57,754 nucleotides of DNA from Oscillospiraceae bacterium (GTDB taxonomy: Bacteria; Bacillota; Clostridia; Oscillospirales; Oscillospiraceae): positions 1 through 57,754 of the forward strand of contig CAVHXA010000011.1 of NCBI GenBank assembly GCA_963639765.1, in the 5' to 3' direction. Shown here in pieces: positions 16,682-36,440 of the stretch. Each line of letters starts with the position of its first letter. Position 1 is the stretch's first letter. Below the pieces are notes generated by a model, which worked only from the letters and a program-made list of their open reading frames with translations, was not told the DNA's origin and ran no database searches. A program made the position numbers and the translations under genes.

Positions 16682-16698
16682 GAAACCTCCTGAGTACC

Positions 16699-19141: not shown

Positions 19142-19149
19142 GTACAGGC

Positions 19150-19992: not shown

Positions 19993-20007
19993 AGTTTGGA
20001 GAACACT

Positions 20008-21006: not shown

Positions 21007-21956
21007 CGGCCGCAGGCATCCGAAAACATTTCATTGCCCAAAGCAGTCTTCGAAAAAGCAGACGGGTATACCTCAGAGCAGTCGACGGAGTAGATCTTCA
21101 AATTTATCCGGGAGAGGCTGTTGGACTGGTTGGTGAGTCCGGCTGCGGCAAGTCCACGCTTGGGCGCTGTCTGCTTGGGCTTTATCCGCTCACAGCCGGA
21201 ACGGTCACATTTCAGGGCCGTGAGCTGCAGGATCTTTCGTTTTCACAGATGCGTCCCTACAGACAAAAGCTGCAGATGATTTTTCAGGATCCCTATTCCG
21301 CACTCAATCCGCGTATGACCATTGCACAGTCGGTCCGTGCTCCGCTGGACGTATTCGGACTGGGAACGAAGCAGCAGCGTGACGAGCAGGTACGTGAGAT
21401 ACTGGGCTATGTTGGTCTGAAAGACGAGCAGATTCACAAATACCCCCACGAAATGTCCGGCGGACAGCGACAGCGGGCTGTCATTGCCCGCGCGATGATT
21501 CTAAAGCCTGCTTTTGTGGTGTGTGATGAACCGGTTTCTGCGCTGGATGCGTCGGTTCAGTCGCAGGTGCTCAACCTGATGCGGCGTATGCAGAAGGATT
21601 TTGGACCGGCATACCTGTTCATATCACACGATCTGAGTGTGGTGCGGTATGTGTGCCAGCGTGTGGCGGTAATGTATCTTGGTCAGATTGTCGAGATGGG
21701 CACACGCACACAGATATTTGACTGTGCGGCCCATCCTTATACACAGGCTCTGCTGTCGGCTATTCCCATCCCGGATGCACACACCAAAACAAACAGAATT
21801 GTATTGCAGGGTGACGTACCCAGCCCTCTCGACCCGCCAACGGGATGCCGCTTCTGCACACGATGCCAACGGGCACAGGAATGCTGCAGCACCGAAGAGC
21901 CGCAGCTCAGGGAGCTTGCGGATGGTCATCTGGTGCGCTGCCATTTTGCCGGATAG
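20988..21956 (+). CDS. oligopeptide ABC transporter ATP-binding protein (OppF-like)
   Basis: Walker A GESGCGKST, signature MSGGQRQR, Walker B VVCDEPVSALD. GAGGAGG RBS. 19-nt overlap with the preceding gene. Confidence 0.9.
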   Translation: MPEPILTAAGIRKHFIAQSSLRKSRRVYLRAVDGVDLQIYPGEAVGLVGESGCGKSTLGRCLLGLYPLTAGTVTFQGRELQDLSFSQMRPYRQKLQMIFQDPYSALNPRMTIAQSVRAPLDVFGLGTKQQRDEQVREILGYVGLKDEQIHKYPHEMSGGQRQRAVIARAMILKPAFVVCDEPVSALDASVQSQVLNLMRRMQKDFGPAYLFISHDLSVVRYVCQRVAVMYLGQIVEMGTRTQIFDCAAHPYTQALLSAIPIPDAHTKTNRIVLQGDVPSPLDPPTGCRFCTRCQRAQECCSTEEPQLRELADGHLVRCHFAG

Positions 21957-22333
21957 AAAACCCGGGCGGTGCCGCACAAATACAGCTTCAGATTCCAACT
22001 AATTTTTGCCCGAGCTACGCTTGAAAAACTCTGCAAACCACAAAAAGCTCCTGCGGGCTTTCACCCTTTTTAAAGAAAAATCTCCCGTTGGACCTTCTCA
22101 CCGATTTGTGTGGGCTTGTCCGCAACTTCATAAAAAAGCGGTTTGACTGCTTTTTATACAGGCAAACACGGCACAGGGACACAAAAGCCCTTCGGCCAAC
22201 GACATACGACGGAAATACGGCCCGAAAACACAGCCGAGGCTGTATCCGATCCGTTTTTTCAAAAACCCCGGACCGAATCCTTTTGCTGACCGTGCGGCGT
22301 TTCCAAAAAGAAACAGAAATGAGGATATGCATC

Positions 22334-24052
22334 ATGAAAAAAACGATCAGCATGCTGCTGGTGCTGGTTATGCTGGTGAGCCTGGCTTTGGCAGGCTGTG
22401 CCAAAACCGAAGCCCCTGCGCAGACCACTGAGACTTCTGCTTCCGGCACTGAAGCCACAGAGACTCCGGCTACTGAAGCGAGCACCGAAACCGCAGAGGT
22501 TCCCACCGAGACAGCCGAGGCTGTCGATGCCGAGGGCGAGACCATTGTCTGGGGCATGAGCACCCTTTGGTCCAGCCTGCAGCCCTATAACAACACCAAC
22601 TACTATAACTCCATCATTATCAGCATGCTCTACGACCAGCTGGTATACATTGATGTTGAAGGCAACATCGAGCCGCGCGCGGCCGAAAGCTGGGAAATGA
22701 GTGAGGATGGAAAGACACTGACTTTCCACCTCAACCCCGATTGCCGCTTCCACGACGGAACCCCCGTCACCGCTGCCGACTGGGTATGGAGTCTTCAGCT
22801 TCTCACCAAAGAGGGTGTAGGTTTCAGCGATCAGAGCCTGATGAGCGTGTTTGAAGGAACAAACGACGCAGGCGTCGAAGCGTCTGAGAATTCTCTGGCC
22901 GTGTCCGCGCCGGATGATACAACGCTTACCATAACTTTTAAAAAAGTCACCAACATGGAATCCTTTCTGATGAGCAACTCCTACTTCATGGTAGTTTTGC
23001 CCAGCGCTCTGCTTAAAGACATCCCTGTGGCAGATATGGCGACCAACGAGTTCTGGTCTGCGCCCGTCGGTTCCGGACCGGCAAAGTTTGTCAGCCAGTC
23101 TGCAGACGGCACGGAGCTTACGCTGGCTCGCAATACCGAATACCAGCTGGGCAATGCCAACTGGGGAAAAATGATCTTCAAGCAGACCGATGCTTCCTCG
23201 GCCTCTTCGGCGATGCTCACGGGAGAAATTGACATTGCCTATTCTCCTATAGCAAACGATGAAGCACTTGGAATGGATGGACAGGCCGGCGTAACGGTTG
23301 ATATGCGCGACGAGGCCACGCAGGTATATGTTATTGCCGTAAACAACACACTGATCGCAGATGCACGCGTGCGTCAGGCGGTTAACTATGCCATCAACAA
23401 AGACAGCATCTGCACACTTCTGACCGGCGATGCTCCTGTCAGTCTGGCTACACCGATGGAGCTCTACATTACCGACTCCAACAAATATTATCCACAGGAG
23501 CTGACATCCGGGCAGGATGTGGAAAAGGCCAGGGAACTGCTCGAGCAGGCCAAGGCTGACGGCTATGACGGAAAGTTTGTACTTGCGGCACCCGAGGCTG
23601 GCCAGCGTGCACAGATCGCCGTTCTGGTCGGTCAGGATCTGCAGGCAGTCGGCTTTGATGTTGAACTGGTAACAATCGACGCCGCAACCATGATGTCTGA
23701 TCTCAAATCCGGTGCCGACGGAACCTATGATGGTGGCATCATCATCTATGGCATTACCCCTGATCCCATGAGCCGCAACGATATTCTCAGCGCATCAAAT
23801 CGTACCGTACTCAGCCTGCAGGATACTGCCTACGACGAAAAAGAAGAAGCCATCGGCAGTGAGCTGGATTCCGAAAAGCGTGCAGAGCTGATTGATGACT
23901 TCTACGGCTATCTCACCGAGCAGGAGCCTGCTGTGTGGATGGTTGGTAAAAAACAATACTACGTATACTCCAGCAAGCTGGGCAATGTGACAGATGATCT
24001 CATCGAGATTGCGCGCCGCAATGTGCCCGTATGGAACTGGAACCTTGGCTAA
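22334..24052 (+). CDS. oligopeptide ABC transporter substrate-binding lipoprotein (family 5 SBP)
   Basis: Start ATG 22334 (MKKTISMLLVLVMLVSLALAGCAKTE) gives a lipoprotein signal. A Thr/Glu/Ala-rich linker follows, then a ~520-aa SBP_bac_5 domain. Confidence 0.9.
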   Translation: MKKTISMLLVLVMLVSLALAGCAKTEAPAQTTETSASGTEATETPATEASTETAEVPTETAEAVDAEGETIVWGMSTLWSSLQPYNNTNYYNSIIISMLYDQLVYIDVEGNIEPRAAESWEMSEDGKTLTFHLNPDCRFHDGTPVTAADWVWSLQLLTKEGVGFSDQSLMSVFEGTNDAGVEASENSLAVSAPDDTTLTITFKKVTNMESFLMSNSYFMVVLPSALLKDIPVADMATNEFWSAPVGSGPAKFVSQSADGTELTLARNTEYQLGNANWGKMIFKQTDASSASSAMLTGEIDIAYSPIANDEALGMDGQAGVTVDMRDEATQVYVIAVNNTLIADARVRQAVNYAINKDSICTLLTGDAPVSLATPMELYITDSNKYYPQELTSGQDVEKARELLEQAKADGYDGKFVLAAPEAGQRAQIAVLVGQDLQAVGFDVELVTIDAATMMSDLKSGADGTYDGGIIIYGITPDPMSRNDILSASNRTVLSLQDTAYDEKEEAIGSELDSEKRAELIDDFYGYLTEQEPAVWMVGKKQYYVYSSKLGNVTDDLIEIARRNVPVWNWNLG

Positions 24053-25210: not shown

Positions 25211-26086
25211 TCAGCCGTTTTCTCCAACCCAGCGGCATACAAAATCCGCAAAACTGTCCAGATAGGGCGCATCGCCATTGGTCTTGCGCACTGCCAGAGC
25301 CAATGTTCGATGAGCAGGGGGGTCCAGCTCCAGCACTGCAACCCGATCTGTCTGACCGCGCAGAAGAAGCTCCGGCATGATGCTTATGCCAAGTCCCTGC
25401 GCAACCATGGCAATCACAGCATAATCGTCCTTTGTGGTATAAGTTACATTGGGCACAATTCCGGCCGAATCCAGCGCCCGTCTAGCGTCGTGGTTGGAGC
25501 TTTCCAGCAGGCTGATAAAGCTTTCTTTTTCAACAGAAGAAACCGGAAACCTCGGCAGCGAGGCCAGAGGATGGTTTTTTGGCAAAATTGCCAGAAGCCG
25601 GTCTTCTTTTAAGGGCAGAATACGAAAGCCTTCCGGTCCGGGAAGTGTAACAAACCCTATGTCTACATCTCCGCCTTTCAGCCAATGGTCAACATCGTAA
25701 TAGTCGCCATTTTCAAGATGAAGCTCTACAAACGGATGCTCGCTTCGAAAAGCCTGAATCAGCGGAGGAAGCCAATGTACGGCTACACTGGTAAATGTAC
25801 CGATACGGATTGTGCCGGCCCGCCCGGAGCGGATTTGCTCGGCAAGCCGGTTTACCCGGTCACCCTGTTCAAGCAGTGTTCTGACCGCCGGAAGCAGCAG
25901 CCGGCCCTGTGCGGTGGTTTGAACTCCGCTGCGGCTGCGCGTAAGCACACAAAAACCCAGCTCGGCTTCCAGCGCCTGAATGAGATGACTCAGAGCTGAC
26001 TGTGTGCAGCCCATCTGTTCGGCGGCTTTGCTGACGGATCCGAGCTGCGCAGTAAAATAAAATGCTTCATATCTTTTCAGGTTCAT
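25211..26086 (-). CDS. LysR-family transcriptional regulator
   Basis: N-terminal HTH (LKRYEAFYFTAQLGSVSKAAEQMGCTQSALSHLIQALE) plus a LysR substrate-binding domain. Start ATG 26086. Divergent from the symporter gene across a 320-bp AT-rich region. Confidence 0.9.
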   Translation of the reverse strand: MNLKRYEAFYFTAQLGSVSKAAEQMGCTQSALSHLIQALEAELGFCVLTRSRSGVQTTAQGRLLLPAVRTLLEQGDRVNRLAEQIRSGRAGTIRIGTFTSVAVHWLPPLIQAFRSEHPFVELHLENGDYYDVDHWLKGGDVDIGFVTLPGPEGFRILPLKEDRLLAILPKNHPLASLPRFPVSSVEKESFISLLESSNHDARRALDSAGIVPNVTYTTKDDYAVIAMVAQGLGISIMPELLLRGQTDRVAVLELDPPAHRTLALAVRKTNGDAPYLDSFADFVCRWVGENG

Positions 26087-26409
26087 ATTTGCACCCCCTA
26101 AGACTATGAGAAAAAATAATTTATAAAGCAAAATTAAAATATAATATCAAAAACGCTCATACAATAGCACATAAAAACAAAAAAATCAACTGAAAACAAA
26201 AGATTCATTAAATAAACGCTTGAATTTATGACACGCATGAATTATAATACAGCTCACCGCCACATGGAAAAGAAAAATGAGAAAACATCATGCGAGTTGC
26301 CTGCGGACCGATTTGTGAGATACTCCGTTCGTCGCAACAGCCGCATACGGCTGCATGGTTTTTGTCCATTGGCGGAATTCCACACCCCTGATTCTAAGGA
26401 GCAGTTGGT

Positions 26410-27864
26410 ATGAACGTTGCAGAGCTGGTTGTTTTTATAGTTTATCTGGTATTCATGCTGGGTATAGGTGTTTTCTTTTTCCTGCGTTCAAGAGATGGCG
26501 GTGATAAAGAGTATTTTCTGGGTGGTCGGCAGATGGGACCCTGGGTTGCAGCCTTATCAGCCGGCGCGTCCGATATGTCCGCCTGGGTCCTGATGGGTCT
26601 GCCGGCCTCGATTTATGCAGCCGGCATCGGGCAGGCCTGGATTGCCATTGGACTTGCAATCGGCTATATTATAAGCTGGCTGGTTGAGGCGCCCCGTCTG
26701 CGGAAGTTTACCATTGTCTGCAAGGATTCTATCACTGTTCCGCAATATCTGACGAATCGATTTCTGTCAAAGAGCAAAACGCTGCAGGTTATTTGCGCGG
26801 TGATTTTTCTGGTGGCCTACACGGTCTATTCTGCTTCGTCAATCAAGGCCTGCGGAACATTGTTCCACACGGTGATTGGTATGAATGAAACCACGGCCAT
26901 GTATATTGCGGCATTGATCATTGTCGGCTATACGTTTTTGGGTGGGTTTAATGCCGTGTGCTGGACAGATTTTTTCCAGGGACTTTTGATGCTCGGCGCC
27001 CTGCTTGTTGCACCCATCTTTGCACTGTTTGTCATTCAGGGCGGCGGAGGTGCCGAAAACACGATTCTGCCTGCAGGCTACTGGAATCCGTTTCACAGCT
27101 GGAAGGATATTGTCTCCGGTCTCGGCTGGGGACTTGGATATTTTGGCATGCCGCATATTATTGTGCGTTTTATGTCGCTGCGCTCGGATAAAGACCTGAA
27201 AAAATCCGCGAAAATCGGCATCACATGGAATATCCTGATTGTCATTTTCTCTGTAGCAGCCGGCTGCATCGGACATATACTGCTCGGCGAAATCGAAGAC
27301 AGCTCGGTGGTGTTTATCACCATGGTCCGCAAGCTTTTTCCTGCACTCATCAGCGGTATCCTGCTGTCTGCTATTCTTGCGGCGGCCATGTCCACATGTG
27401 ATTCTCAGCTATTGGCTTCTGCTTCGGCCTTCTCTGCGGATGTTTATCAGCCGGTTCTGCGCAAAAACCGCGCATCCGACAAAGAAATGCTCTGGTCCGG
27501 ACGTTTTGTTGTGCTGGCGATTTCCGTCATAGCAGTACTGATTGCATCCAATCCCGACTCCGGAACCATCATGGGACTGGTTGAAAATGCCTGGGGTGTG
27601 TTTGGCGCGGCTTTTGGACCGGCGATTATGCTCAGTCTGTTCTGGCGCCGATTCACCTTCAGCGGCGCAATAGCCGGTATTGTGGTGGGTGCAGTGGTAG
27701 ATATCGGCTGGCTGCTGTTTATGTCGGAAACCGGTATCTATGAAATCATCCCCGGTTTTTTCGCAAGCCTTCTTGCTGCTGTCGCAGTAGCCCTGCTCAG
27801 CCGCAGCCCCTCACGCGAAATTACGGATCTCTATGATCGAGGCGTTGCGCTCGAAGACGAATAA
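26410..27864 (+). CDS. sodium:solute symporter (SSS family, PutP-like)
   Basis: 13-TM SSS architecture. N-terminal ...GGRQMGPWVAALSAGASDMSAW... AAGGAG RBS. Confidence 0.85.
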   Translation: MNVAELVVFIVYLVFMLGIGVFFFLRSRDGGDKEYFLGGRQMGPWVAALSAGASDMSAWVLMGLPASIYAAGIGQAWIAIGLAIGYIISWLVEAPRLRKFTIVCKDSITVPQYLTNRFLSKSKTLQVICAVIFLVAYTVYSASSIKACGTLFHTVIGMNETTAMYIAALIIVGYTFLGGFNAVCWTDFFQGLLMLGALLVAPIFALFVIQGGGGAENTILPAGYWNPFHSWKDIVSGLGWGLGYFGMPHIIVRFMSLRSDKDLKKSAKIGITWNILIVIFSVAAGCIGHILLGEIEDSSVVFITMVRKLFPALISGILLSAILAAAMSTCDSQLLASASAFSADVYQPVLRKNRASDKEMLWSGRFVVLAISVIAVLIASNPDSGTIMGLVENAWGVFGAAFGPAIMLSLFWRRFTFSGAIAGIVVGAVVDIGWLLFMSETGIYEIIPGFFASLLAAVAVALLSRSPSREITDLYDRGVALEDE

Positions 27865-28039
27865 ACAAAAAACCGCGAGCGACCGACATCCCGCATCTTT
27901 GTCTCTGTCGGCTGCATATATACAGGGACCCGCGCAGTCAGGGATCGAATCATCCAGCTGCCGCGGGCCCTTCACTGTGTACCCGGCGGGATTCTCCCCA
28001 CCGGGCTTGACATTCCCGGAGCGTTGCGATAGACTGAAC

Positions 28040-28810
28040 ATGTTGAAATTATCTCAAGTCTATACGAAAGGAATGGTTCCCTTGGCCAAATCCAAAGTCA
28101 CAACCGTAGAAGAAGCCATCAAGACCTATTGCTTCGACGGTATGACCGTTCTGCTGCCCGGTTTTGTGAATGTCGGCGTATCCGAAACTCTGATCGAGGG
28201 CCTGATCGCTGCGGGCATCAAAGATATTAGCGTTATATCCAACAACACATCTGTCCCACATCGCGGTATTGGCAAGCTAGTTGATGCCAACGTCATTAAA
28301 AAGATCACGGCATCCCACATCGGAAACAATGCGGTAACGGTCGAAAAGGTTGTTGCCGGCGAGATCAACCTGACATTTGTCCCTCAGGGCTCACTGTGCG
28401 AAAAGGTTCGTGCCGGCGGTGCCGGTATCGGCGGTATCCTTACTCCCACCGGTCTGTATACCCCCATGATGGATGGCAAGCAGGTTGTAGAATGGGATGA
28501 AGAGGCCGGCAAGTTCAAATTCCTCGAAGGCGAAATCGTTCCTGATGCCACCAAAAAGCGCTTTATTCTCGAGCTGCCCCTGCATGGCGATGTCTGCTTT
28601 GTCCACGCATGGAAGGCAGACAAGATGGGCAATGTGGTTTATCGCCGCACCTCCCGCAACTTCAACGAAGCTTTCTGCACTGCGGCTGACCACGTAATCG
28701 TAGAGGCCGAAGAAATCGTTGAAATCGGCGAGCTGGATCCCGACCAGATCATGACCCCGGGATTTGTGGTCGATGCCGTTGTGCAGGGCCGCGCCCTGAC
28801 CGAAGCGTAA
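28040..28810 (+). CDS. CoA-transferase family I subunit A (AtoD/ScoA-like)
   Basis: ...ITASHIGNNAVTVEKVVAGEINLTFVPQGSLCEKVRAGGAGIGGILTPTG... The start is ATG 28040 or ATG 28073 (both have weak RBSs). Confidence 0.8.
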   Translation: MLKLSQVYTKGMVPLAKSKVTTVEEAIKTYCFDGMTVLLPGFVNVGVSETLIEGLIAAGIKDISVISNNTSVPHRGIGKLVDANVIKKITASHIGNNAVTVEKVVAGEINLTFVPQGSLCEKVRAGGAGIGGILTPTGLYTPMMDGKQVVEWDEEAGKFKFLEGEIVPDATKKRFILELPLHGDVCFVHAWKADKMGNVVYRRTSRNFNEAFCTAADHVIVEAEEIVEIGELDPDQIMTPGFVVDAVVQGRALTEA

Positions 28811-28823
28811 GGAGGACTCAACC

Positions 28824-29489
28824 ATGGAACTGACCGGAAAAAATCTGATCGCTTATCGTACTGCCCGCCTTTTCAAAGACGGCGACGTTGTTAATCTGGG
28901 CATTGGCATGCCTACAATGTGCCTGGACTATCTGCCCGAAGGTGTTGATGTCTGGGTTGACTCCGAAAACGGCGTAGTTGGCCTGACCGGCGCTCCCAAA
29001 GAGGGCGAATATGCCGATCCCAACGTAGTTGATGCCGGCGGCAAGGTTTCAAAGCTTCGCGTTGGTGGCTCCTGCTTCGATTCCTTCCGTTCCTTCGGTT
29101 TTATCCGCGGCGGCCATGTGGACGCTACCGTTCTGGGTGCCTATGAGGTTGATGCAGAAGGCAATCTGGCCAACTGGATGATCCCGGGCAAGACTGCTGC
29201 CGGTATGGGCGGCGCCATGGACCTTGTCACCGGTTCAAAGACTACTATCGTAATGACAACCCATTGCGATAAGGCCGGCAACCCCAAGATTGTCCAAAAG
29301 ACATCCATGCCGTTGACAGGCTATCACTGCATCGACTACATCGTATCCGAGCTGGCTCTGATCCACATTACCCCCGAGGGGCCTGTCCTCCTCGAAACTG
29401 CTCCCGGTGTGAGCGTAGAAGATGTTGTTGCAAAAACCGGCGCCAAGCTGATTATCCCAGAAAAAGTTGGCTGCATGATCAAGGAATAA
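28824..29489 (+). CDS. CoA-transferase family I subunit B (AtoA/ScoB-like, catalytic Glu in SENG motif)
   Basis: DGDVVNLGIGMPT, VDSENGVVGL, HCDKAGNPKIV. AAGGAGG RBS. Confidence 0.85.
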   Translation: MELTGKNLIAYRTARLFKDGDVVNLGIGMPTMCLDYLPEGVDVWVDSENGVVGLTGAPKEGEYADPNVVDAGGKVSKLRVGGSCFDSFRSFGFIRGGHVDATVLGAYEVDAEGNLANWMIPGKTAAGMGGAMDLVTGSKTTIVMTTHCDKAGNPKIVQKTSMPLTGYHCIDYIVSELALIHITPEGPVLLETAPGVSVEDVVAKTGAKLIIPEKVGCMIKE

Positions 29490-29506
29490 GGCTGTTTCAA
29501 ATACAG

Positions 29507-29534
29507 GGTCCTCCCATACGGGAGGACCTTTTTT
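29507..29534 (+). terminator. intrinsic terminator after the CoA-transferase genes
   Basis: GGTCCTCCC (29507-29515), loop ATAC, GGGAGGACC (29520-29528), then TTTTTT (29529-29534). Confidence 0.8.
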
Positions 29535-29712: not shown

Positions 29713-30999
29713 TTATTTTCCGCGTAGCTTCCCCGGAGCGGCACCTTCATATTTTGCGAAGGCCCGATACATGGTAGTCAGGCTGGAATATCCCGTCATG
29801 CGGGCAATATCCTGCACGGCCAGATCTGGGTTTGCAAGCAGCTGTTTGGCAGCGGCAATACGGGTTTGATGAATCAGATCGCGGACGCCTATACCAAAGG
29901 CTCTGCGAAACTGCGTAGCAATTTCCCGCGGCTCCATGGAAAATTCCTTGGCTACCAGTGTCAGGCAGGCCTCCGGCTGCAGGGCGATAGATCGAACATA
30001 GTCTGCCATTTTAGAAAGCAGCAATGCGCGGGATTCCGCTTTTTGGCGGGCCATCTGCTCAAGCAGCACGTCGGCAGCCTCCTCGGCCTTATCTACAAGA
30101 TCCCTGCGATATTCTGCACCCATAAAGCTCCGGCTCAGGTCTACAGTTCGCAGATACTTCAGCGGAATTACATCTTCGTCGGCAAGGTGATACTGGAGCG
30201 ATTCCCAGAAACGAAGAATACTGTTTCGCAGAGTATTCGGATAGGGCAAGCCCTGACAATTGTCGGCCAGTGCAGCCAGGGCCTCACGAAAACGTTCCAC
30301 TGTAGCACTGCGGTCCATGGCGGAAAGGGCACCGCAGATTCGCTCGGCGCGCTCATCCATCTGCTGCTCAAACTGTACTCGCTGGGTTGAGTCGTTCAGC
30401 CGCTGCATGTCTGTGTCACCGGTTGAATAGATCGGCAGACGGCCACCCTTGTGACCATAATAAAAGCGCAGGCTGTCTTCGAGCTTTGAAAACAAACGGC
30501 TGGCCTCCTGCATTTCTTCGATATCCCGATAGTAGGCACTTTCGATACCTCTGCAGCGAAACGGAATCCACGACTGTACCTGCCGACAGGCAGCTTCAAG
30601 TTCATGGTCCTGCGAATCGCAAAACCACAGAAGAAACAGATAACCGAACATCAATATTCCATATCCGCCGTTATTGCTGTTCTCCAGGGCCTGGGCCACA
30701 GCCTGACGCAGCGCCAGATGCAGACGCATACGTCCGTGATGCCGGGTTTCGATCGGCATGTTTTCCAGTGCCGGCTCCGTGATGGTGAACTTTACCAGCC
30801 GATACCCCTGCTGAGGAAAGCATACGCCTCGCTGCTTCAGTTCAAGCAGAATCTCGCCCGTATGTGCTCTGGAGTTAAAAAACAGTGCACCAAACAGACC
30901 TTCTGTCCCGTCCTGACTGGAGGGAGAGGAAAAGGAACCAAGAGAAACGACTGGGTCGAAGGAATCGTTGGACTGGAGCATTGTCTGCAGGTTCTGCAT
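29713..30999 (-). CDS. AraC/XylS-family transcriptional regulator with a ~320-aa non-receiver N-terminal sensor domain
   Basis: C-terminal double HTH (...IATQFRRAFGIGVRDLIHQTRIAAAKQLLANPDLAVQDIARMTGYSSLTTMYRAFAKYEG...). Divergent from the 31134 cluster. RBS GAGAGGTGG. Confidence 0.85.
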   Translation of the reverse strand: MQNLQTMLQSNDSFDPVVSLGSFSSPSSQDGTEGLFGALFFNSRAHTGEILLELKQRGVCFPQQGYRLVKFTITEPALENMPIETRHHGRMRLHLALRQAVAQALENSNNGGYGILMFGYLFLLWFCDSQDHELEAACRQVQSWIPFRCRGIESAYYRDIEEMQEASRLFSKLEDSLRFYYGHKGGRLPIYSTGDTDMQRLNDSTQRVQFEQQMDERAERICGALSAMDRSATVERFREALAALADNCQGLPYPNTLRNSILRFWESLQYHLADEDVIPLKYLRTVDLSRSFMGAEYRRDLVDKAEEAADVLLEQMARQKAESRALLLSKMADYVRSIALQPEACLTLVAKEFSMEPREIATQFRRAFGIGVRDLIHQTRIAAAKQLLANPDLAVQDIARMTGYSSLTTMYRAFAKYEGAAPGKLRGK

Positions 31000-31133
31000 G
31001 GGATGACACCACCTCTCACAGCATGAAATAAACTATACTCAACATCATAACATGACCGCGTTAAAAAGAAAAGCTGCAACACTGGATTTTATCCGGATGC
31101 AATATAAAAGAATTACTATAGGAGGAATTCCAT

Positions 31134-31991
31134 ATGCCTGAGATCAAGCGTTATAACTTTGACGATGTTGCCCGGGCTCTGGGTGCGAACGTCCAGCCCC
31201 GGGGCGGCGGTGCACCCGCCGGCGGACAGGGTGGTCCCGGAGGACCCGGCGGTGCTCCCGGCGGCCCCGGTGGTCCCGGCGGCCCCGGTGGTCCCGGCGG
31301 TCCCGGCGGTCCCGGCGGACCCGGCGGCCCCGGAGGACCCGGCGGCGGACAGGGTGGCCCCGGTGGCCCGGGAGGCCCTGGCGGCAAGGGCGGTATGCCT
31401 GCCGGACTGACAGCCAAGTTTGACCCGAAGGGCGTACGAAACACCGACGTTCGCATGGCTGAAACGTGGCCGGTCGAGCGTGCGCTGAAGCTGTATGACT
31501 ACTTCAAGGAAGAAGCCGAAAAGGGAACGATACTCGAGTTTGAGGGACATGCTTCCTGCTGGGCAACTATGGCTTTGTGCGCCAGACTTCCCAAAAACCA
31601 GGTCAAGCTCTACATGCCCCCGTTCCGCAAAAGCCTGGATCTGGCTCCTTTCCAGATCAGCGAGAAACTGACCGACGGTCAGATGTGTGACTACAGAATC
31701 CGCGAAGAGGGCGACGACATCTATCTTGAAGTTGTTCTGAGCGGAGACGGGAACCCTGACCCCTTTGCGGTGGCCTTTGCCGATACCACGGCTCCTGCTT
31801 TGCCCGCTGGGAAAAATATATATGTAAATCTATACGGGAACCACTATCTGCCCTGCTTCTGCCTGCCCTGGACCTATCCGGACTGCAAGACCATGTATAT
31901 GTGCACTCCCGTAGAAACCCATTGTGTCCTGTCCAATGACCCCAACGTAAAGGTGGGAGACGAGGGCAAGAACCCGTTTAAGGAGGACTGA
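31134..31991 (+). CDS. hypothetical protein with N-terminal (Gly-Gly-Pro)n low-complexity tract and Cys-rich C-terminus
   Basis: AGGAGG RBS. aa 24-87 are GG(P/Q/A/K) triplets. The ~200-aa C-terminal part ends LPCFCLPWTYPDCKTMYMCTPVETHC and has no recognisable family. Confidence 0.7.
   Translation: MPEIKRYNFDDVARALGANVQPRGGGAPAGGQGGPGGPGGAPGGPGGPGGPGGPGGPGGPGGPGGPGGPGGGQGGPGGPGGPGGKGGMPAGLTAKFDPKGVRNTDVRMAETWPVERALKLYDYFKEEAEKGTILEFEGHASCWATMALCARLPKNQVKLYMPPFRKSLDLAPFQISEKLTDGQMCDYRIREEGDDIYLEVVLSGDGNPDPFAVAFADTTAPALPAGKNIYVNLYGNHYLPCFCLPWTYPDCKTMYMCTPVETHCVLSNDPNVKVGDEGKNPFKED
31203..31394 (+). repeat. degenerate 9-nt tandem DNA repeat (ggYcccggY) encoding (GGP)n
   Basis: Read directly: ggtcccggaggacccggcggtgctcccggcggccccggtggtcccggc... 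The antisense shadow ORF reads PPGPPGPP. Confidence 0.85.
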
Positions 31992-31993
31992 GC

Positions 31994-32719
31994 GTGAAAT
32001 ACTCTTACACCCCCCAGCAATTGATTGATCGCTGCCTGATGATCCGGGAAGCCCAGAATGTGGTAGGCAGCGCACTGCACTACGATATGCTGGCGAAATT
32101 CGATGAAATTTTCGACAAATTCTGGGCAAAGAATGAGCCTGTCTGCTTTGGTCAGAACGATGGCTATTTCCAGGGCGCTGAGGCTGTGAAGGCCTATTAC
32201 GCCAAGAAGACGGAAAATGCCAGAATCGTGACCAGATTCCTTATGGAAAAGTGGCCGGACAAATTCAAGGACATGACTGAGGCCGAGGCCTACGGTGCCG
32301 GCTATGTAAAGGGCAACGACTTCCATACCCCTATCATTGAGGTAGCAGAGGATATGAAGTCCGTCAAGTGCCTGTTCCAGGTTCAGTCTGCCAATACCAA
32401 CATCACCCCCAAGGGCCCGCTGAGCTATTGGAATCTCAGCTATCTGGGCGTGGATCTGGTTTTGGAAAATGACGAGCTGAAGATCAAGAATATGCTGTGG
32501 GTCAACGACATCGACCATCCGGTGGCTGAGCCATGGACCGAACCTACAAAGTTCGAGGATCTTCCTGAGTTTGCAGCCCTGACAAAGATCGAACAGCCAA
32601 AGCCCAATGTTCCCCAGGAGCTTTTGGCGGCTTACTATCCCGGCCGTCCCTTCCCCAAGTATCCTGCCATGCCCGAGCCCTATACCACCCTGGCTGAGAC
32701 ATTCAGCTATGGCCTTTGA
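31994..32719 (+). CDS. NTF2/SnoaL-like fold protein, paralog 1 of 3 (GTG start)
   Basis: AGGAGG RBS 7 nt before GTG 31994. Shares with the next two genes a ~130-aa core (FWxK ... (V/I)(K/R)AYY ... GW/LKI(K/W)...). C-terminal Pro-rich tail. Confidence 0.65.
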   Translation: MKYSYTPQQLIDRCLMIREAQNVVGSALHYDMLAKFDEIFDKFWAKNEPVCFGQNDGYFQGAEAVKAYYAKKTENARIVTRFLMEKWPDKFKDMTEAEAYGAGYVKGNDFHTPIIEVAEDMKSVKCLFQVQSANTNITPKGPLSYWNLSYLGVDLVLENDELKIKNMLWVNDIDHPVAEPWTEPTKFEDLPEFAALTKIEQPKPNVPQELLAAYYPGRPFPKYPAMPEPYTTLAETFSYGL

Positions 32720-32736
32720 GAAAGGAGTTGACCTTG

Positions 32737-33462
32737 ATGTACAGCAAAGCAACGGATTTCTCCAAGTCTATTCAGGCCGAGCGGGCCTATGACTACGAGG
32801 AGATCAAAAAGATCATGGCCAAGCGTGCCTATCTCATGAGCACCAACCGTCGGGCAGAGGAGCTGGACACCCTCTGGACGAAAGAGCACAAGGACACCGC
32901 ATCCTATGGACGGAACTGGGGCTACTATGTTGGGCTGGACCAGATCCGGGCCTACTATGTGGATAAAAACTCCTTCGGCGGCGACGGAACAGCTATCTGC
33001 CACCCCTTCACCACCCACAAGATCAATATTGCAGACGATGGGAAGACCGCACAGGTAACCTGGTACTCCATCGGCTATGAGATCGTTAAAACCGACGACG
33101 GCTTTACCGGCTATTGGGACAACCAGCGCTGCGGCTGTGACCTTATCTTGGAGGCTGATGGCTGGAAGATCTGGCACTATTTCGCCGGCACCGACTTCTG
33201 TGTGGAGCCCGGCTACAAATATGCCGACCTGGATGTCTTTACCTACACACCTGTAGAGGCCATTCCCAAAGCAGAGTTCGGCACTCCCACGGTAGCTATG
33301 AACGCCTACAACTGCGACTATAACTATTATATGTATCCAACCATCACCCGTGAGCATGCCACCTTTAAGGATACCGTGAGCAACGGTCCTGAGGGCAACC
33401 CCAAGTTCACAGGCTTCTGGAAGCCCCACACTGGCAACTGGGAACCCCATACCGAAGGCTGA
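32737..33462 (+). CDS. NTF2/SnoaL-like fold protein, paralog 2 of 3
   Basis: AAAGGAG RBS. LDQIRAYYVDKNS ... ADGWKIWHYF. Tyr/Asn-rich C-terminal tail. Confidence 0.65.
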   Translation: MYSKATDFSKSIQAERAYDYEEIKKIMAKRAYLMSTNRRAEELDTLWTKEHKDTASYGRNWGYYVGLDQIRAYYVDKNSFGGDGTAICHPFTTHKINIADDGKTAQVTWYSIGYEIVKTDDGFTGYWDNQRCGCDLILEADGWKIWHYFAGTDFCVEPGYKYADLDVFTYTPVEAIPKAEFGTPTVAMNAYNCDYNYYMYPTITREHATFKDTVSNGPEGNPKFTGFWKPHTGNWEPHTEG

Positions 33463-33475
33463 GGAGGCGAAGAGA

Positions 33476-34414
33476 ATGAATAAGAACCTGGATTTTGACA
33501 CCAAGCTTGCCATTGTACAAGCTGGACAGGCAGTTGAGAACGTCCACAGCTGGCATGCCATCCTGCATGCCGGCGGCCATACCACAGAGGAAGTAGAGAC
33601 CTTCTGGAGCAAGTATCGGGATGATCTGTACTGGGGCTACAACATGGCAGGCAAGTACGGCCGCGACGAGGTTGTCGAGGGCTGGTGTAACGGCCTGGAG
33701 GGCGGCGCCTATGGTATGTACGCCCGGATGAACGAGCTGTATCCCGAAACAATCGGTATGGATCCGCTGCCTTTGAGCGAATACTCTCTGCACGCTGTGG
33801 GCCTGCCCGTGGTAGAGATCGGTCGTGATCTGAAGACAGCTCGTGCTGTGTTCTACTCCACTGGCATGCTCTGCCGGAACATTGCCACCAACGGCAAGAA
33901 GATGGCTGTTTGGATGCTCGAACGCTATGGCGAGGATTACGTTTTGGAAGACGGCTACTGGAAGATCCTTCATGAATGCGTGCTCAACGACTCCGGCGGC
34001 GCCCAGGATGTGACGAACTTTGGCTGGGATGCCTATCAGAAAATGCTGAATCCCGGTATGGGCCGCGGCCCCGGTGGCGGTCAGGGCGGACCCGGCGGCA
34101 AGGGCGGACCAGGCGGCCCAGGCGGTCAGGGTGGACCCGGTGGTCCCGGCGGCCAGGGTGGACCCGGTGGTCCCGGTGGCCAGGGAGGTCCCGGCGCTGC
34201 TCCCAACGGCAAGCAGTTTGACAAGAAAGCCTATTCCAAGATGGGTGCCGGAAGCGGCGCCGGAATGGGCAGCATGCCCGGTGCCCACATTACCTACACA
34301 CCTACCCAGACCCCCCAGGACTCTACGCCTCTTCCCGAGCCCTTCGAGACCCTGGACTTTGTAAAGACCCACTATGTTGTTGGTCTGGGAGAAAACAAGG
34401 GCGCAAAGCGCTGA
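33476..34414 (+). CDS. NTF2/SnoaL-like fold protein, paralog 3 of 3, with C-terminal (Gly-Gly-Pro/Gln)n tract and tail
   Basis: EDGYWKILHECV core. aa 196-240 are GG(P/Q/K) triplets, then a ~70-aa tail. Confidence 0.7.
   Translation: MNKNLDFDTKLAIVQAGQAVENVHSWHAILHAGGHTTEEVETFWSKYRDDLYWGYNMAGKYGRDEVVEGWCNGLEGGAYGMYARMNELYPETIGMDPLPLSEYSLHAVGLPVVEIGRDLKTARAVFYSTGMLCRNIATNGKKMAVWMLERYGEDYVLEDGYWKILHECVLNDSGGAQDVTNFGWDAYQKMLNPGMGRGPGGGQGGPGGKGGPGGPGGQGGPGGPGGQGGPGGPGGQGGPGAAPNGKQFDKKAYSKMGAGSGAGMGSMPGAHITYTPTQTPQDSTPLPEPFETLDFVKTHYVVGLGENKGAKR
34061..34195 (+). repeat. second degenerate 9-nt tandem repeat encoding (GGP/GGQ)n, direct repeat of the 31203-31394 tract
   Basis: ggacccggtggtcccggcggccagggtggacccggtggtcccggtggccaggga... 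Confidence 0.85.
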
Positions 34415-34634
34415 CGCTTCCTTTCTTTTTTGGCGGGCTGTCGTGTCAGCGGCGGCAGCCTGCCGAGATCTTTCCTACAACAGATTTGCTGCTGTATGTC
34501 AGACCGGTATGTGCACTGAACAACACAAGATTTCCGGATGTTTGCATATATGGAGACATTCTGCCTGTCAGACAGACAATCAAACGGAGTGTTATCATTT
34601 CATCGCTTGAAACCCGAAAAGAAGGAGGTTCCAA

Positions 34635-36383
34635 ATGAAAAAGTATCTGGCTCTTTTACTTGCTCTGGCCATGCTGTTTTCCGTGATGGCAGGCTGCGCA
34701 AAAACCGAAACCACAACCGAGCCTGCAGAAACGCAGGCATCATCCGAAACCGAGCCTGCAGCTGCTGCGGAAAGCAGTCAGACTGAAGAAGCCACCGAAC
34801 CTGCAGCAGCCGAGGAAGAAGCTGAGACTGTGCAGAGCGAAGAAGAAACGGCAGCAGAGACGGTTGTCGAAGAAGTAGAAGAGGTGATCGGCCCTGATTA
34901 TTACTATGTAACAGACGGCGATCCCATCGAAATTTCGCTGACCTTCAGCTATATGTACTGGTTTTCGACCATGTTTGATTCCTGGGGAAGCTCTCCGTGG
35001 TGGCAGCCTGTTGAAGAAGCCACAAACGTAAAGTTTGTCTTCAATGAGCTTATGAACACAACCTACAGCGAAAAAGTCAGTTTGATGATTGCCGGCGGGG
35101 ATACAACCGACACCATAACCGAACTTGCCTCTGTATATTCCGGCGGTCTCAAGGGTGCTATCGACGATGAGGTAATCTATGACGTGGCTCCCTATATTGA
35201 GGAATATGCTCCTCTGTATTATGAACGCCTGTATGCGGGCACAGAAGAAGCAGATAACATGCTTGACGGCATCACCAACGAAGACGGTACGATGGGCGCC
35301 ATGTATGCCATGCTCGAGGAGCCGCTCGGCATTACCGGCGGCAGCTGGATTCGCACCGACTGGCTCGAAGGTGTCGGCATGGAGATCCCAACCACTATCG
35401 ACGAGCTGTATGAGGTGCTCTGCGCCTTCCGCGACAAATACAACGCGGACGCGGCACTGTATCAGAATATCGGCGTTAACGATGTGGGCGTAAAGGTCCA
35501 GAACGTCTGGAACGCCTTTGGCGAGCTGGCCTACTTCGTGGAAGACGGCCAGGTGAAATACGGACTTGAGCAGCCTTATGCACAGGATTATTTCATCTAT
35601 CTGCGCAAGCTGGCCGATGCCGGCGTGTTTACCACCAGCGAATATACCGACCTGACCACAAAGGAGCTTATGAGCCAGAACCGTACCGGTATGTTTGGTG
35701 ACAATATCTCCACGATTGCAAACAATCTGGTTTTGATGGATGAGGGCGTTACCGTAAAAGCCATCGCTGCCTTCGGGGAGCCCACGGAATATGGCTCGTT
35801 CGATTCACTTATTCCCGGGCAGAGCGCTGCACTGAGCCTGTTTACAACCTGCGAATATCCGGAGCTGGTCCTCAAAATGTGCAACTGGCTGTATACCGAA
35901 GAGGGCAGCCTGCATGCCAATTATGGCCTGGAGGGGCTGAGCTTTGAATATGATGCAGACGGCAACCCAACCTTTACCGATCTTGTCATCAACAACCCGG
36001 ATGGCATTCCTGTTGATGCGGCTCTTGGGTATTGGACCGATCGCACCTTCCTTCCTGCCCTGCTCGATGGCTTCCGCACATACTACAACTACGAAGACTA
36101 TCAGCTTGAAGCCAGTGACATCTGGGCAACTGCCTATACAGGCAACTCCAAGACCATGCCCTCTGTTACCCTTACTACCGAAGAGAACGATTCTATCCGC
36201 AATGCCAGAAGTGATTTGAACACATATCTTAACGAGCAGGAAAACCTGCTGGTTTTCGGCAGCAAGGATCCCTCTGACGATGCTACCTGGCAGGCGTTTG
36301 TCGACGGAATGCAGTCTTATCTGCCTTTGCTGCTTGAGGTCAATCAGACGGCCTATGATCGCTATCTGAAGGCACACGAATAA
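34635..36383 (+). CDS. large extracellular solute-binding lipoprotein (family 1 SBP, ~580 aa), no adjacent permease genes
   Basis: MKKYLALLLALAMLFSVMAGCAKTE lipobox. A long Glu/Ala/Thr linker. The sugar-SBP-like domain is typical of the 'LipO'-type polysaccharide-utilisation SBPs. Confidence 0.8.
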   Translation: MKKYLALLLALAMLFSVMAGCAKTETTTEPAETQASSETEPAAAAESSQTEEATEPAAAEEEAETVQSEEETAAETVVEEVEEVIGPDYYYVTDGDPIEISLTFSYMYWFSTMFDSWGSSPWWQPVEEATNVKFVFNELMNTTYSEKVSLMIAGGDTTDTITELASVYSGGLKGAIDDEVIYDVAPYIEEYAPLYYERLYAGTEEADNMLDGITNEDGTMGAMYAMLEEPLGITGGSWIRTDWLEGVGMEIPTTIDELYEVLCAFRDKYNADAALYQNIGVNDVGVKVQNVWNAFGELAYFVEDGQVKYGLEQPYAQDYFIYLRKLADAGVFTTSEYTDLTTKELMSQNRTGMFGDNISTIANNLVLMDEGVTVKAIAAFGEPTEYGSFDSLIPGQSAALSLFTTCEYPELVLKMCNWLYTEEGSLHANYGLEGLSFEYDADGNPTFTDLVINNPDGIPVDAALGYWTDRTFLPALLDGFRTYYNYEDYQLEASDIWATAYTGNSKTMPSVTLTTEENDSIRNARSDLNTYLNEQENLLVFGSKDPSDDATWQAFVDGMQSYLPLLLEVNQTAYDRYLKAHE

Positions 36384-36415
36384 GCCATATTGCACAAATT
36401 TCTCGAAAATAGAAG

Positions 36416-36440
36416 CGCCCCTGCCGCAGCGGCAGGGGCG
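36416..36440. terminator. GC-rich hairpin between convergent SBP (+) and rpe (-) genes
   Basis: CGCCCCTGCC (36416-36425) / GGCAGGGGCG (36431-36440), loop GCAGC. Confidence 0.55.

Follow-up and report, generated by a model that had tools for sequence, protein, structure and literature searches.

What is specified by an island in which glycine- and proline-rich tracts, three small paralogous proteins and a large solute-binding lipoprotein lie beside a regulator of the AraC family, and does it correspond to any pathway already known? The island occurs in a stretch of 57,754 nucleotides from an Oscillospiraceae bacterium (assembly GCA_963639765.1, contig CAVHXA010000011.1), which we refer to in its entirety as the window. 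The six genes described in the initial annotation, with the two Gly-Gly-Pro tracts and the orphan lipoprotein, were all found at the places it had given. The island represents a single copy of a so far undescribed cassette that recurs many times in uncultured Oscillospiraceae of the gut and rumen. No description of it was found in the literature, and its homologs are all unnamed or designated simply as "NTF2 family protein", which bears out the earlier view that it matches no characterised pathway. On balance, and by a little more than an even judgement, we read it as a recurrent cassette for a three-subunit, cofactor-free enzyme related to LdpA, with a Csx3-like accessory protein of a fold met otherwise in CRISPR signalling.

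Boundaries, transcription and regulation

The island had been described as bounded by terminators at 29507 and 36416. Hairpins do exist at 29505-29530 and 36416-36440, but the second scores on the minus strand only and is therefore the terminator of rpe. The AraC/XylS-family regulator (428 aa, 29713-30999, minus strand) diverges from ORF1 across an intergenic region (31000-31133) that presumably holds the promoter and operator; no Rfam family matched this region and no consensus promoter scored in it, and by our reading of the sequence the ORF1 ATG is preceded, at a distance of 8 nt, by an AGGAGG ribosome-binding site. Two hairpins at 34406-34468 (plus strand), directly after the stop of the third paralog and 5' of the binding-protein gene, might act as a weak terminator or attenuator. 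Since a weak hairpin with a T-run is followed here by a promoter-like site (34569-34598), co-transcription of the binding-protein gene is not a given, and this gene may be transcribed separately from the rest of the island. A reductase, glycosidase or permease partner is absent from the window. CoA-transferase genes end ~220 bp from the AraC gene.

The regulator consists of a ~310-aa N-terminal sensor region followed by a C-terminal HTH_18 domain (67.8 bits, 1e-18), and the absence of a receiver domain agrees with its earlier description. Pfam GGDEF_2 is matched by 9 of 22 triplet-adjacent AraC orthologs (best E = 1.3e-7), the window copy scoring only 0.1; in the PDB, a profile of the regulator matched AraC DNA-binding domains and nothing else, and by our reading the sensor consensus holds just glycines and hydrophobic residues at the expected position of the GGDEF motif. 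The sensor appears, from its sequence, to be GGDEF_2-like, and the regulator would switch on the operon in response to a small molecule.

The A-B-C triplet

The core of the cassette consists of three paralogs, A, B and C, that share 23-26% identity; in each, a cone domain is followed by a long C-terminal arm, and a P-x-P-[YF]-x-T motif at the end of the arm is common to all three. Subunit A (ORF2, 241 aa, 31994-32719, plus strand) has an NTF2-like cone and an arm that terminates in PEPYTTLAETFSYGL; it begins at a GTG codon as annotated, but 2 nt rather than 3 nt past the ORF1 stop, and an identical 241-aa protein exists in public sequences (NCBI and Logan). Subunit B (ORF3, 32716-33462, plus strand) might start at TTG 32716 or at ATG 32737, the latter being the choice of an independent gene call that yields 241 aa. 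It provides the best match to Pfam SnoaL_4 (56.6 bits, 3.4e-15; cut-off 24 bits), and its AlphaFold2 model has a pLDDT of 86.6. Subunit C (ORF4, 312 aa, 33476-34414, plus strand; SnoaL_4 29.5 bits, 8.4e-7) comprises a core (aa 1-190), a G/P linker (aa 193-243; 34052-34204) and an arm (aa 244-312) that bears the motif PLPEPFETLD...HY, so that the glycine-rich tract and 70-aa tail noted previously stand, the tail being 69 aa. The assignment of all three to the NTF2/SnoaL-like proteins is upheld: B and C pass the SnoaL_4 threshold, and A, which falls under it, is linked to B by BLASTP (E = 5e-12).

To call this core a tandem triplication undersells it, for it is an ancient, fixed triplet of subfunctionalised subunits. 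Among 74 non-redundant related loci, selected by similarity to the B of the window, we counted 97 intact triplets, invariably in the order A-B-C, with families of nearly equal size (A 113, B 108 and C 104 members) and translationally coupled genes whose spacings are grouped at -4 or 12-14 nt. When one genome per species was scanned, 349 relatives came up, and the best 80 of these 349 came mostly from Oscillospiraceae or Clostridiales assemblies. Several copies of the cassette can reside in one genome assembly, with metabolic and transport genes as neighbours.

The link to LdpA comes from both structure and sequence. The top Foldseek match of the B model was LdpA (1.5e-8), above BaiE and LinA, and profiles of A, B and C matched LdpA with E-values of 3.9e-9, 3.6e-3 and 5.1e-7, respectively; nothing else in the PDB fell under E = 0.1. 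LdpA is a trimer held together through its C-terminal arms, and its catalytic residues are Tyr35, Asp40, His97, Glu143 and Tyr147 (PMC9942872). Residues H27, H31, H106, E149, R150 and Y151 of C are invariant among 27 members; H106, E149 and Y151 align with His97, Glu143 and Tyr147 of LdpA, and these three equivalents are invariant across ~100 members. In a profile alignment B keeps only H96, aligned with His97, and A, for which conservation was computed on 110 members, retains none of the LdpA-type catalytic residues. The cores of B and C are lined by many conserved polar residues.

By analogy with LdpA, and given the gene order, A, B and C would form a 1:1:1 heterotrimer. The pattern of conserved residues suggests that C is the catalytic subunit, which would perform an elimination that needs no cofactor (a dehydration, lyase or isomerase reaction), and that A and B would have turned into structural or substrate-shaping subunits.

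The Csx3-like protein, the linkers and the binding protein

ORF1 (285 aa, 31134-31991, plus strand), which had been assigned to no known family, encodes a protein, D, that the model and the fold and profile comparisons place instead as one tandem Csx3-like domain, related to CARF and SAVED proteins. Residues 1-20 (a strand and a helix) precede a disordered G/P loop (24-91) and the remainder of the domain (94-285); in the AlphaFold2 model the N-terminal peptide packs into the domain, the first 20 residues returning onto its C-terminal part. A profile of D matched only 134 proteins among 1.84 billion. D itself falls below the Pfam Cas_csx3 threshold, which 8 of 10 fusion proteins tested pass. 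Of the 36 D-like ORFs in the collected loci, 34 have a triplet within 5 kb; only ~40% of triplets have D, and fusions in which D is joined to the C-terminus of C were found in several lineages (at least eight loci, plus P0112 and P0173). D is thus a tandem Csx3-like ligand-binding domain that is genetically tied to the trimer, and would serve as a tethered accessory subunit, either regulatory or binding the handle of a ligand.

The Gly-Gly-Pro tracts had been seen as features of two proteins that bracket the paralogs; one of the two, however, is the third paralog itself, in which the tract links the core to the C-terminal arm. The tract in D (aa 24-91; 31203-31406, plus strand) is an imperfect 9/18/27-bp repeat at the DNA level, in which Tandem Repeats Finder delimited 31219-31345 and 31356-31385 (77-83% matches); that in C yielded repeats at 34076-34196. 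An origin as assembly or repeat artefacts was considered and is ruled out: these imperfect 9/27-bp repeats show synonymous variation, tracts occupy matching positions in orthologs, and an identical C protein comes from an independent assembly. In a second public sequence of C (NCBI) a single 27-nt unit is gained or lost in frame, and the length of the C tract is therefore uncertain by about one unit. In orthologs of D the tract runs from 12 to 82 residues at the corresponding place or is missing; taken together, the tracts are missing from many orthologs and fusions. Predicted to be disordered, as had been suggested, the tracts are linkers whose length varies but whose two positions are fixed, the junction of core and arm in C and the interior of D, where they would provide reach and flexibility.

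The last gene (34635-36383, plus strand) specifies a 582-aa lipoprotein with an MAGC lipobox and an acidic linker of ~80 aa. It falls below every Pfam threshold, and its orthologs match SBP_bac_1 or SBP_bac_8 weakly; its matches in the PDB (5xs8 at 6.5e-17, 5gub, AlgQ1, AlgQ2 and FusA) sustain its assignment to the family-1 solute-binding proteins. It is also an orphan, as proposed; the nearest transporter genes (18179-24052) belong to an Opp-type operon that includes a family-5 binding protein. Of 99 triplets, 48 have a binding protein of the lipoprotein's family within 5 kb. The lipoprotein would bind substrate, probably an oligosaccharide or plant glycoside, on the outside of the cell and supply it to a permease whose gene lies elsewhere.

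The AraC regulator, D, the binding protein and the G/P linker in C make up one flavour of the cassette: the linker co-occurs with the other three at odds ratios of 6-11 (Fisher p 1e-4 to 6e-7), values that ignore phylogeny and derive from loci picked by similarity to the window's B. In a second flavour the triplet is paired with ene-reductases, with which the flavour of the window is anti-correlated (odds ratio 0.17, phylogeny again ignored). The commonest other neighbours of triplets are NCR/dienoyl-CoA-reductase-like flavoenzymes, FAD_binding_2-Fer4 proteins and molybdopterin oxidoreductases, along with LysR, PucR and HxlR regulators.

Alternative readings and relation to known systems

NTF2-like proteins, such as Rieske dioxygenase beta subunits, are often non-catalytic, which is a point against the enzyme reading. 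Those beta subunits are among the fold matches here, catalytic-type residues number none in A and one in B, and the His-Asp dyad is incomplete, so that A-B-C might instead be a ligand-binding, sequestering or scaffolding complex, for example for a hydrophobic compound or for partner ene-reductases. We hold this possible, at a clearly lower probability than an enzyme, as three invariant equivalents of LdpA catalytic residues persist in C across ~100 members, many conserved polar residues line the cores of B and C, the neighbourhood lacks an oxygenase alpha subunit, and an anaerobic life is most likely for the hosts, judging from lineage and habitat. A steroid or bile-acid dehydratase like BaiE, acting on a CoA thioester whose nucleotide part is bound by D, seems to us improbable. 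The fold comparison does return BaiE structures (4l8p at 3.6e-6), the CoA-transferase genes lie close to the AraC gene, and other triplets adjoin thiolase and ChsH2-type genes as well as NCR/2,4-dienoyl-CoA-reductase-like flavoenzymes, the class that includes BaiCD and BaiH; yet the sequence profiles match LdpA and not BaiE, bai-type genes are absent from the window, and its flavour of cassette is anti-correlated with the reductases and accompanies an oligosaccharide-type binding protein.

The fold of D, which is that of Csx3/Crn3 and SAVED sensors, and the GGDEF-like (palm-related) domain of the adjacent regulator might suggest an effector or anti-phage defence controlled by a cyclic oligonucleotide. 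This is very unlikely: PADLOC matches none of the proteins, cyclase, CD-NTase and cas genes are absent from the window and from the recurrent neighbour families and gene tables examined at other loci, assemblies carry multiple copies among metabolic and transport genes, the AraC sensor has the consensus of glycines and hydrophobic residues noted above, and D is missing from more than half of the triplets. Least credible of all is a structural or condensate-forming assembly, already raised in the initial annotation, in which collagen-like or elastomeric tracts would cross-link the complexes. Glycine does recur at every third position through 15 consecutive triplets in both tracts, and collagen peptides show weak similarities that are not significant, but such periodicity is trivial where two of three residues are Gly, only one chain per presumed trimer bears a tract, orthologous tracts can be short and irregular (12-30 residues) or, often, absent, some C-D fusions have linkers other than G/P, and the tracts are disordered in the model. 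An LdpA-related enzyme stays the best reading, and its role would be catabolic, with a plant- or host-derived compound as the target, as was suggested at the outset; more speculatively, the most plausible substrate would be a plant phenylpropanoid dimer, a glycoside or a similar hydroxylated compound.

LdpA and PcfL (PDB 8abt, 8abv), the sole solved family reached by sequence profile from A, B and C, are NTF2-superfamily C-gamma-formaldehyde lyases of sphingomonads; LdpA itself, a lyase that acts on lignin dimers, needs no cofactor and forms a homotrimer in which C-terminal arms clasp the adjacent subunit. The likeness lies in chains of ~240 aa, in the cone with its extended arm and in the His97, Glu143 and Tyr147 equivalents kept in C. 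In contrast to that homotrimer of one gene from aerobic sphingomonads, the cassette has three diverged paralogs in fixed order (identity to LdpA only 16-20%) in Firmicutes that are most likely anaerobic, lacks a stilbene dioxygenase partner, and adds a Csx3-like partner and G/P linkers. No subunit conserves Asp40 of the His-Asp dyad, and C has His in place of Tyr35, so that the reaction may not be the one that LdpA performs. BaiE (bile-acid 7-alpha-dehydratase), LinA and scytalone dehydratase are catalytic trimers of the same fold and Pfam family with a His-based acid-base site within the cone, and ene-reductases of the BaiCD/BaiH class pair with other triplets; these enzymes are, however, homotrimers of ~150-170 aa chains that have no long arm and are unmatched at the sequence level, and the context of the bai operon is absent here. 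The lipoprotein resembles family-1 binding proteins of the AlgQ1/AlgQ2, Smon0123 and FusA type over ~450 residues, in its anchoring and in the large size typical of oligosaccharide binders, but it is sub-threshold in Pfam and recurs just downstream of C with no adjacent permease or ATPase. D, finally, reaches genuine members of PF09620, the family of the Csx3/Crn3 ring nuclease, by profile, and its two Csx3-like halves per chain recall the pseudo-dimeric layout of SAVED sensor domains; unlike both it stands outside any CRISPR or CBASS context, scores below the Pfam threshold, carries a long G/P insertion and is dedicated to NTF2-like triplets, to one subunit of which it is sometimes fused.

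Gene order and surroundings of the island

The island at 29713-36440 contains all six of the genes that the initial annotation had assigned to it, and they are as described there. The AraC regulator gene was called on the minus strand (29713-30999) and the other five genes are read from the plus strand: ORF1 (31134-31991), which encodes the 285-aa protein D; ORF2 (31994-32719), ORF3 (32716-33462, with an alternative ATG at 32737) and ORF4 (33476-34414, 312 aa), which encode the consecutive NTF2-like paralogs A, B and C, here called the triplet; and the gene for a 582-aa lipoprotein (34635-36383). Protein A does begin at a GTG, but the gap after the ORF1 stop, earlier counted as 3 nt, is 2 nt. 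The hairpins on either side of the island are real (29505-29530 and 36416-36440). The stop codon of C is followed by a weak hairpin with a T-run, and a promoter-like site lies ahead of the lipoprotein gene, so that this last gene is possibly not co-transcribed with the others. A comparison with Rfam gave no riboswitch or leader RNA match at E <= 1.

The flanking genes are unrelated to the island. Upstream (25211-29489), a LysR regulator gene diverges from an operon for an SSF sodium:solute symporter and both CoA-transferase subunits (A and B), and ~220 bp separate the end of this operon from the 3' end of the AraC gene. The downstream genes encode Rpe, a Halogen_Hydrol-family (PF10112) protein and TelA. 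Elsewhere in the window, a 664-aa ORF on the minus strand (14816-16810) has no Pfam match at E <= 1e-4 and adjoins the gene for a DUF2207 membrane protein (13063-14607).

The triplet and its kinship to LdpA

The NTF2/SnoaL-like nature previously ascribed to the three paralogs was confirmed for B and C by Pfam (SnoaL_4, PF13577; 56.6 and 29.5 bits against a gathering cut-off of 24) and for A by BLASTP to B. Protein A has no SnoaL_4 match, yet it is a paralog of B (5e-12) and its orthologs match SnoaL_4 weakly; the pairwise identities among A, B and C are 23-26%. An AlphaFold2 model of B (pLDDT 86.6) shows the NTF2 cone followed by a C-terminal extension that is ordered in part, and the alpha+beta cone fold finds 139 PDB matches at E <= 0.001, led by NTF2-like proteins.

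Relatives of these genes are numerous and essentially unannotated. The 85 homologs of B in an index of 5.8 billion proteins are either unnamed or called "NTF2 family protein [Oscillospiraceae]", and their neighbourhoods contain consecutive paralogs of ~241, 236-256 and 260-507 aa, often as two sets per locus. A scan with one genome per species yielded 349 relatives, the best 80 of which come mostly from assemblies labelled Oscillospiraceae, Clostridiales or Eubacteriales, with human (Hadza), rumen and deer samples as sources. Since several triplet copies can also occur within a single genome assembly, the triplet makes up a sizeable unannotated share of the metabolic repertoire in an abundant gut lineage, mostly uncultured Oscillospiraceae. 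A few triplet contigs (L018, L021, L024, L031, L056, L071 and L084) lie in bins labelled Barnesiella, Bacteroidaceae, Bacteroides or Flexilinea; their 62-66% identity to Oscillospiraceae copies suggests that these labels reflect errors of binning and not the true hosts.

When ORFs were called in all 88 collected sequences and sorted by subfamily HMMs, the non-redundant loci were found to contain 113 proteins of type A, 108 of type B and 104 of type C, with 97 intact triplets in 74 loci. The order is A-B-C without exception, and the distances between the genes fall mostly at -4 or 12-14 nt. This fixed order, the tight coupling and the equal numbers of the three proteins are indicative of a hetero-oligomer.

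The form that such a complex might take is suggested by LdpA, a cofactor-free homotrimeric lignin-dimer lyase (PDB 8abt and 8abv) in which C-terminal arms clasp the neighbouring subunit. This diarylpropane lyase was the first Foldseek match of the B model in the PDB (E = 1.5e-8), followed by BaiE, LinA and scytalone-dehydratase-like proteins, and the profiles of A, B and C all match it (3.9e-9, 3.6e-3 and 5.1e-7, respectively), with no other PDB entry below E = 0.1. Each of the three proteins carries a C-terminal arm of 50-120 residues with a terminal motif common to all of them, which reads P-E-P-Y-T-T-L-A-E-T-F-S-Y-G in A and P-E-P-F-E-T-L-D in C, with the related A-T-F-x-D-T-x-S-x-G-P-E-G in B. 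From this kinship and the shared arm ends we infer that A, B and C would form a heterotrimer built on the plan of the LdpA trimer.

The residues essential to LdpA include Asp40, His97 and Glu143, and its oxyanion hole is formed by Tyr35 and Tyr147 (PMC9942872). In HMMER alignments His106, Glu149 and Tyr151 of C are equivalent to His97, Glu143 and Tyr147, and a sample of 27 C proteins shows no variation at these three positions, with conservation of at least 90% across 103. Motif II of LdpA (Glu143 and Tyr147) is retained only in C; B has D135 and C139 at these positions, neither of them conserved. The central-strand His97 does have a counterpart in B (H96, at least 70% conserved) and none in A, which thus carries none of the LdpA-type catalytic residues. 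With the site residues kept in C, only the His kept in B and none in A, C is the likely catalytic subunit, and A and B are degenerate.

Neither Asp40 of the His-Asp dyad nor Tyr35 of the oxyanion hole is retained in the alignments of A or C. The Tyr35 position is occupied by A27 in A and H27 in C (via the A and A/C alignments) and the Asp40 position by M32 and A32, respectively, with the register in both cases good to within ~1 residue. Helix 1 of C contains two invariant histidines, His27 and His31, the second of which is one residue ahead of the Asp40 position (again within ~1 residue). Because the Asp and Tyr35 equivalents are changed, the complex is not classed as an LdpA orthologue; its chemistry is nevertheless expected to be a related acid-base elimination.

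A Csx3-like partner and the Gly-Gly-Pro-rich tracts

Homologs of ORF1 have in common an N-terminal peptide (R-x-N-F-x-x-V-A-x-x-L-G), a Gly-Gly-Pro-rich (G/P) tract of variable length and a core of ~190 residues, a profile of which matched only 134 proteins among 1.84 billion representatives. The earlier view that ORF1 belongs to no known family is overturned by relatives found with this profile that pass the Pfam threshold for Cas_csx3 (PF09620). Eight of ten multidomain matches do so, each with two stretches, and two of these proteins also bear an HD domain; among the stand-alone relatives, 6 of 88 score above the same threshold. ORF1 itself has no Cas_csx3 match at E <= 1, and in its fold it was found to be Csx3-like. 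The stand-alone relatives keep the N-terminal peptide and have a short structured connector in place of the G/P loop. Given the Cas_csx3-passing relatives and the peptide common to the stand-alone ones, ORF1 is a tandem Csx3-like domain into which a G/P tract is inserted.

A triplet lies no more than 5 kb away from 34 of the 36 D-like ORFs that the collected loci contain, those lacking a G/P tract included. In locus L006 and in protein P0112, C continues at its C-terminus into the D module, and such fusions make a physical association between D and C likely. Three D-family relatives (P0149, P0216 and P0260) have signal-peptide-like or lipoprotein-like starts, so that some members of this family are perhaps exported. 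A single-protein metagenome scan for the wider D family gave no match.

The tracts themselves are confined to C and D; A, B, the binding proteins and the regulators have practically none. In 36 of 104 C proteins they separate core from arm and always begin at about residue 190, and in D they always come after the N-terminal peptide; their lengths range from 12 to ~80 residues, and the C-D fusion P0173 has a linker of another composition. That they might be artefacts of assembly was rejected, since the DNA consists of imperfect repeats of 9, 18 or 27 bp (68-83% matches, with synonymous variation), the tracts occupy the same positions in orthologs, and an independent Logan assembly (L088, SRR13434646) contains an identical C protein. 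The contig of that assembly stops inside ORF1, which suggests that G/P repeat DNA is difficult to assemble. One other public C sequence (NCBI; P0132 compared with P0133) is identical except for one additional in-frame 27-nt unit (9 aa) in the tract at 34052-34204 of the window, a difference that is either a strain polymorphism or a short-read collapse. The tracts are therefore real, with an exact length that is uncertain by about one unit. They are disordered in the predicted model and irregular among orthologs; the collagen Gly-X-Y periodicity is formally present, but trivially so, as Gly makes up two thirds of the residues, and the similarity to PDB collagen entries is not significant. The tracts behave as flexible spacers.

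Several other readings were weighed. The first 20 residues of ORF1 might have been a docking or encapsulation peptide, but the model folds them into the domain (pLDDT 94) and relatives without the G/P loop have the same peptide. The Csx3 likeness could point to a defence system, a reading that we reject: PADLOC gave no match, the neighbours are metabolic, and cas genes were found neither in the window nor among the recurrent neighbour families of related loci. It is possible, although we think it rather unlikely, that a heterotrimeric NTF2-like catabolic enzyme has co-opted a Csx3/CARF-type fold as a dedicated subunit tethered by linkers, where it would serve in control by a nucleotide second messenger or in binding a nucleotide-like handle of the substrate, such as a CoA moiety. 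If this recruitment were true, the D family as a whole (~130 clusters at 50% identity) would represent a branch of the Csx3 lineage with no part in immunity. To our knowledge the Csx3/CARF-type fold is so far described solely for the cyclic-oligonucleotide signalling of CRISPR and CBASS systems, and the present case, if confirmed, would be the only one known to us of a Csx3-like domain at work outside nucleotide-based immunity.

Cassette flavours, a proposed mechanism and known relatives

The triplet recurs with accessory genes as a cassette, and a comparison of 99 triplets, in which kinship among loci was ignored, distinguishes two flavours. Triplets whose C has a G/P linker tend also to be accompanied by D (odds ratio 6.0), a family-1 binding protein (11.4) and an AraC regulator (10.5), and tend to lack OYE-type reductases (0.25); binding protein and reductases avoid each other (0.17). 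The window cassette is of this first flavour. Neighbours in the second include flavoenzymes nearest to 2-naphthoyl-CoA reductase (NCR) and 2,4-dienoyl-CoA reductase, FAD_binding_2-Fer4 proteins, molybdopterin oxidoreductases and Opp transporters, with regulators of the LysR, PucR and HxlR types. Second-flavour triplets in L004 (6524-13642) and L009 (599-4359) adjoin arrays of two or three NCR/dienoyl-CoA-reductase-like flavoenzymes and a FAD_binding_2-Fer4 protein, and L005 (in part also L004) has thiolase and ChsH2-type zinc-ribbon genes as well. In several loci (L001, 6397-7015; L007, 6581-7191; L023, 2905-3516) pairs of short HxlR-family ORFs lie between the AraC gene and the triplet, and HxlR-type regulators respond to formaldehyde or electrophiles. 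Their position beside triplets is notable in view of the LdpA reaction, in which formaldehyde is released via a quinone methide (PMC9942872).

The AraC regulator of the window has the C-terminal double helix-turn-helix domain of its family (HTH_18, 67.8 bits), and its profile matches AraC-type DNA-binding domains in the PDB. A GGDEF_2 domain, a sensor type that also occurs in PucR regulators, was detected in 9 of 22 AraC orthologs (best E = 1.3e-7), with the window copy below threshold. An active cyclase in this sensor region was rejected, as the consensus at the site of the GGDEF motif has only glycines and hydrophobic residues. The lipoprotein has a lipobox and no Pfam match, and its sequence matches in the PDB are large family-1 binding proteins (5xs8 at 6.5e-17, Smon0123, AlgQ1/2 and FusA); it is probably a family-1 solute-binding protein, and with no cognate permease in the window it is an orphan, as described earlier. 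The one set of ABC transporter genes in the window is a complete Opp-type operon (18179-24052), which encodes two permeases, two ATPases and its own family-5 binding protein of 654 aa and is located ~6 kb upstream of the island; Opp components recur beside triplets elsewhere.

Taken as a pathway, a small molecule would activate the AraC regulator and thereby turn on D-A-B-C and probably also the binding-protein gene; the lipoprotein might capture an oligosaccharide or glycoside and deliver it to a permease whose gene lies elsewhere; the ABC trimer would carry out a cofactor-free elimination in the pocket of C; and D, tethered by its own linker and that of C, would regulate or assist the reaction. 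The link to LdpA thus offers a chemical hypothesis, namely cofactor-free elimination on benzylic or allylic alcohols, with the residues named here as targets for mutation. If confirmed, such cassettes would be candidates for the anaerobic conversion of lignans, neolignans and similar dietary compounds.

The initial annotation had found no characterised pathway to which the island corresponds, and this still holds: homologs are without informative names, and literature searches for the cassette, for NTF2 heterotrimers and for NTF2 proteins with SAVED or Csx3 partners found nothing relevant. Among known systems, a Rieske dioxygenase beta subunit, another possible identity for such proteins, was rejected because no alpha subunit is nearby. 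The BaiE-type dehydratases resemble B at the level of the fold only, the profiles of A, B and C having no BaiE match, and the window contains no bai genes. If confirmed, the complex would be the only obligate heterotrimeric NTF2-like enzyme known to us. The cassette would take its place among the catalytic NTF2-like trimers, and is unusual among them in its obligate three-paralog composition and its dedicated Csx3-like partner.
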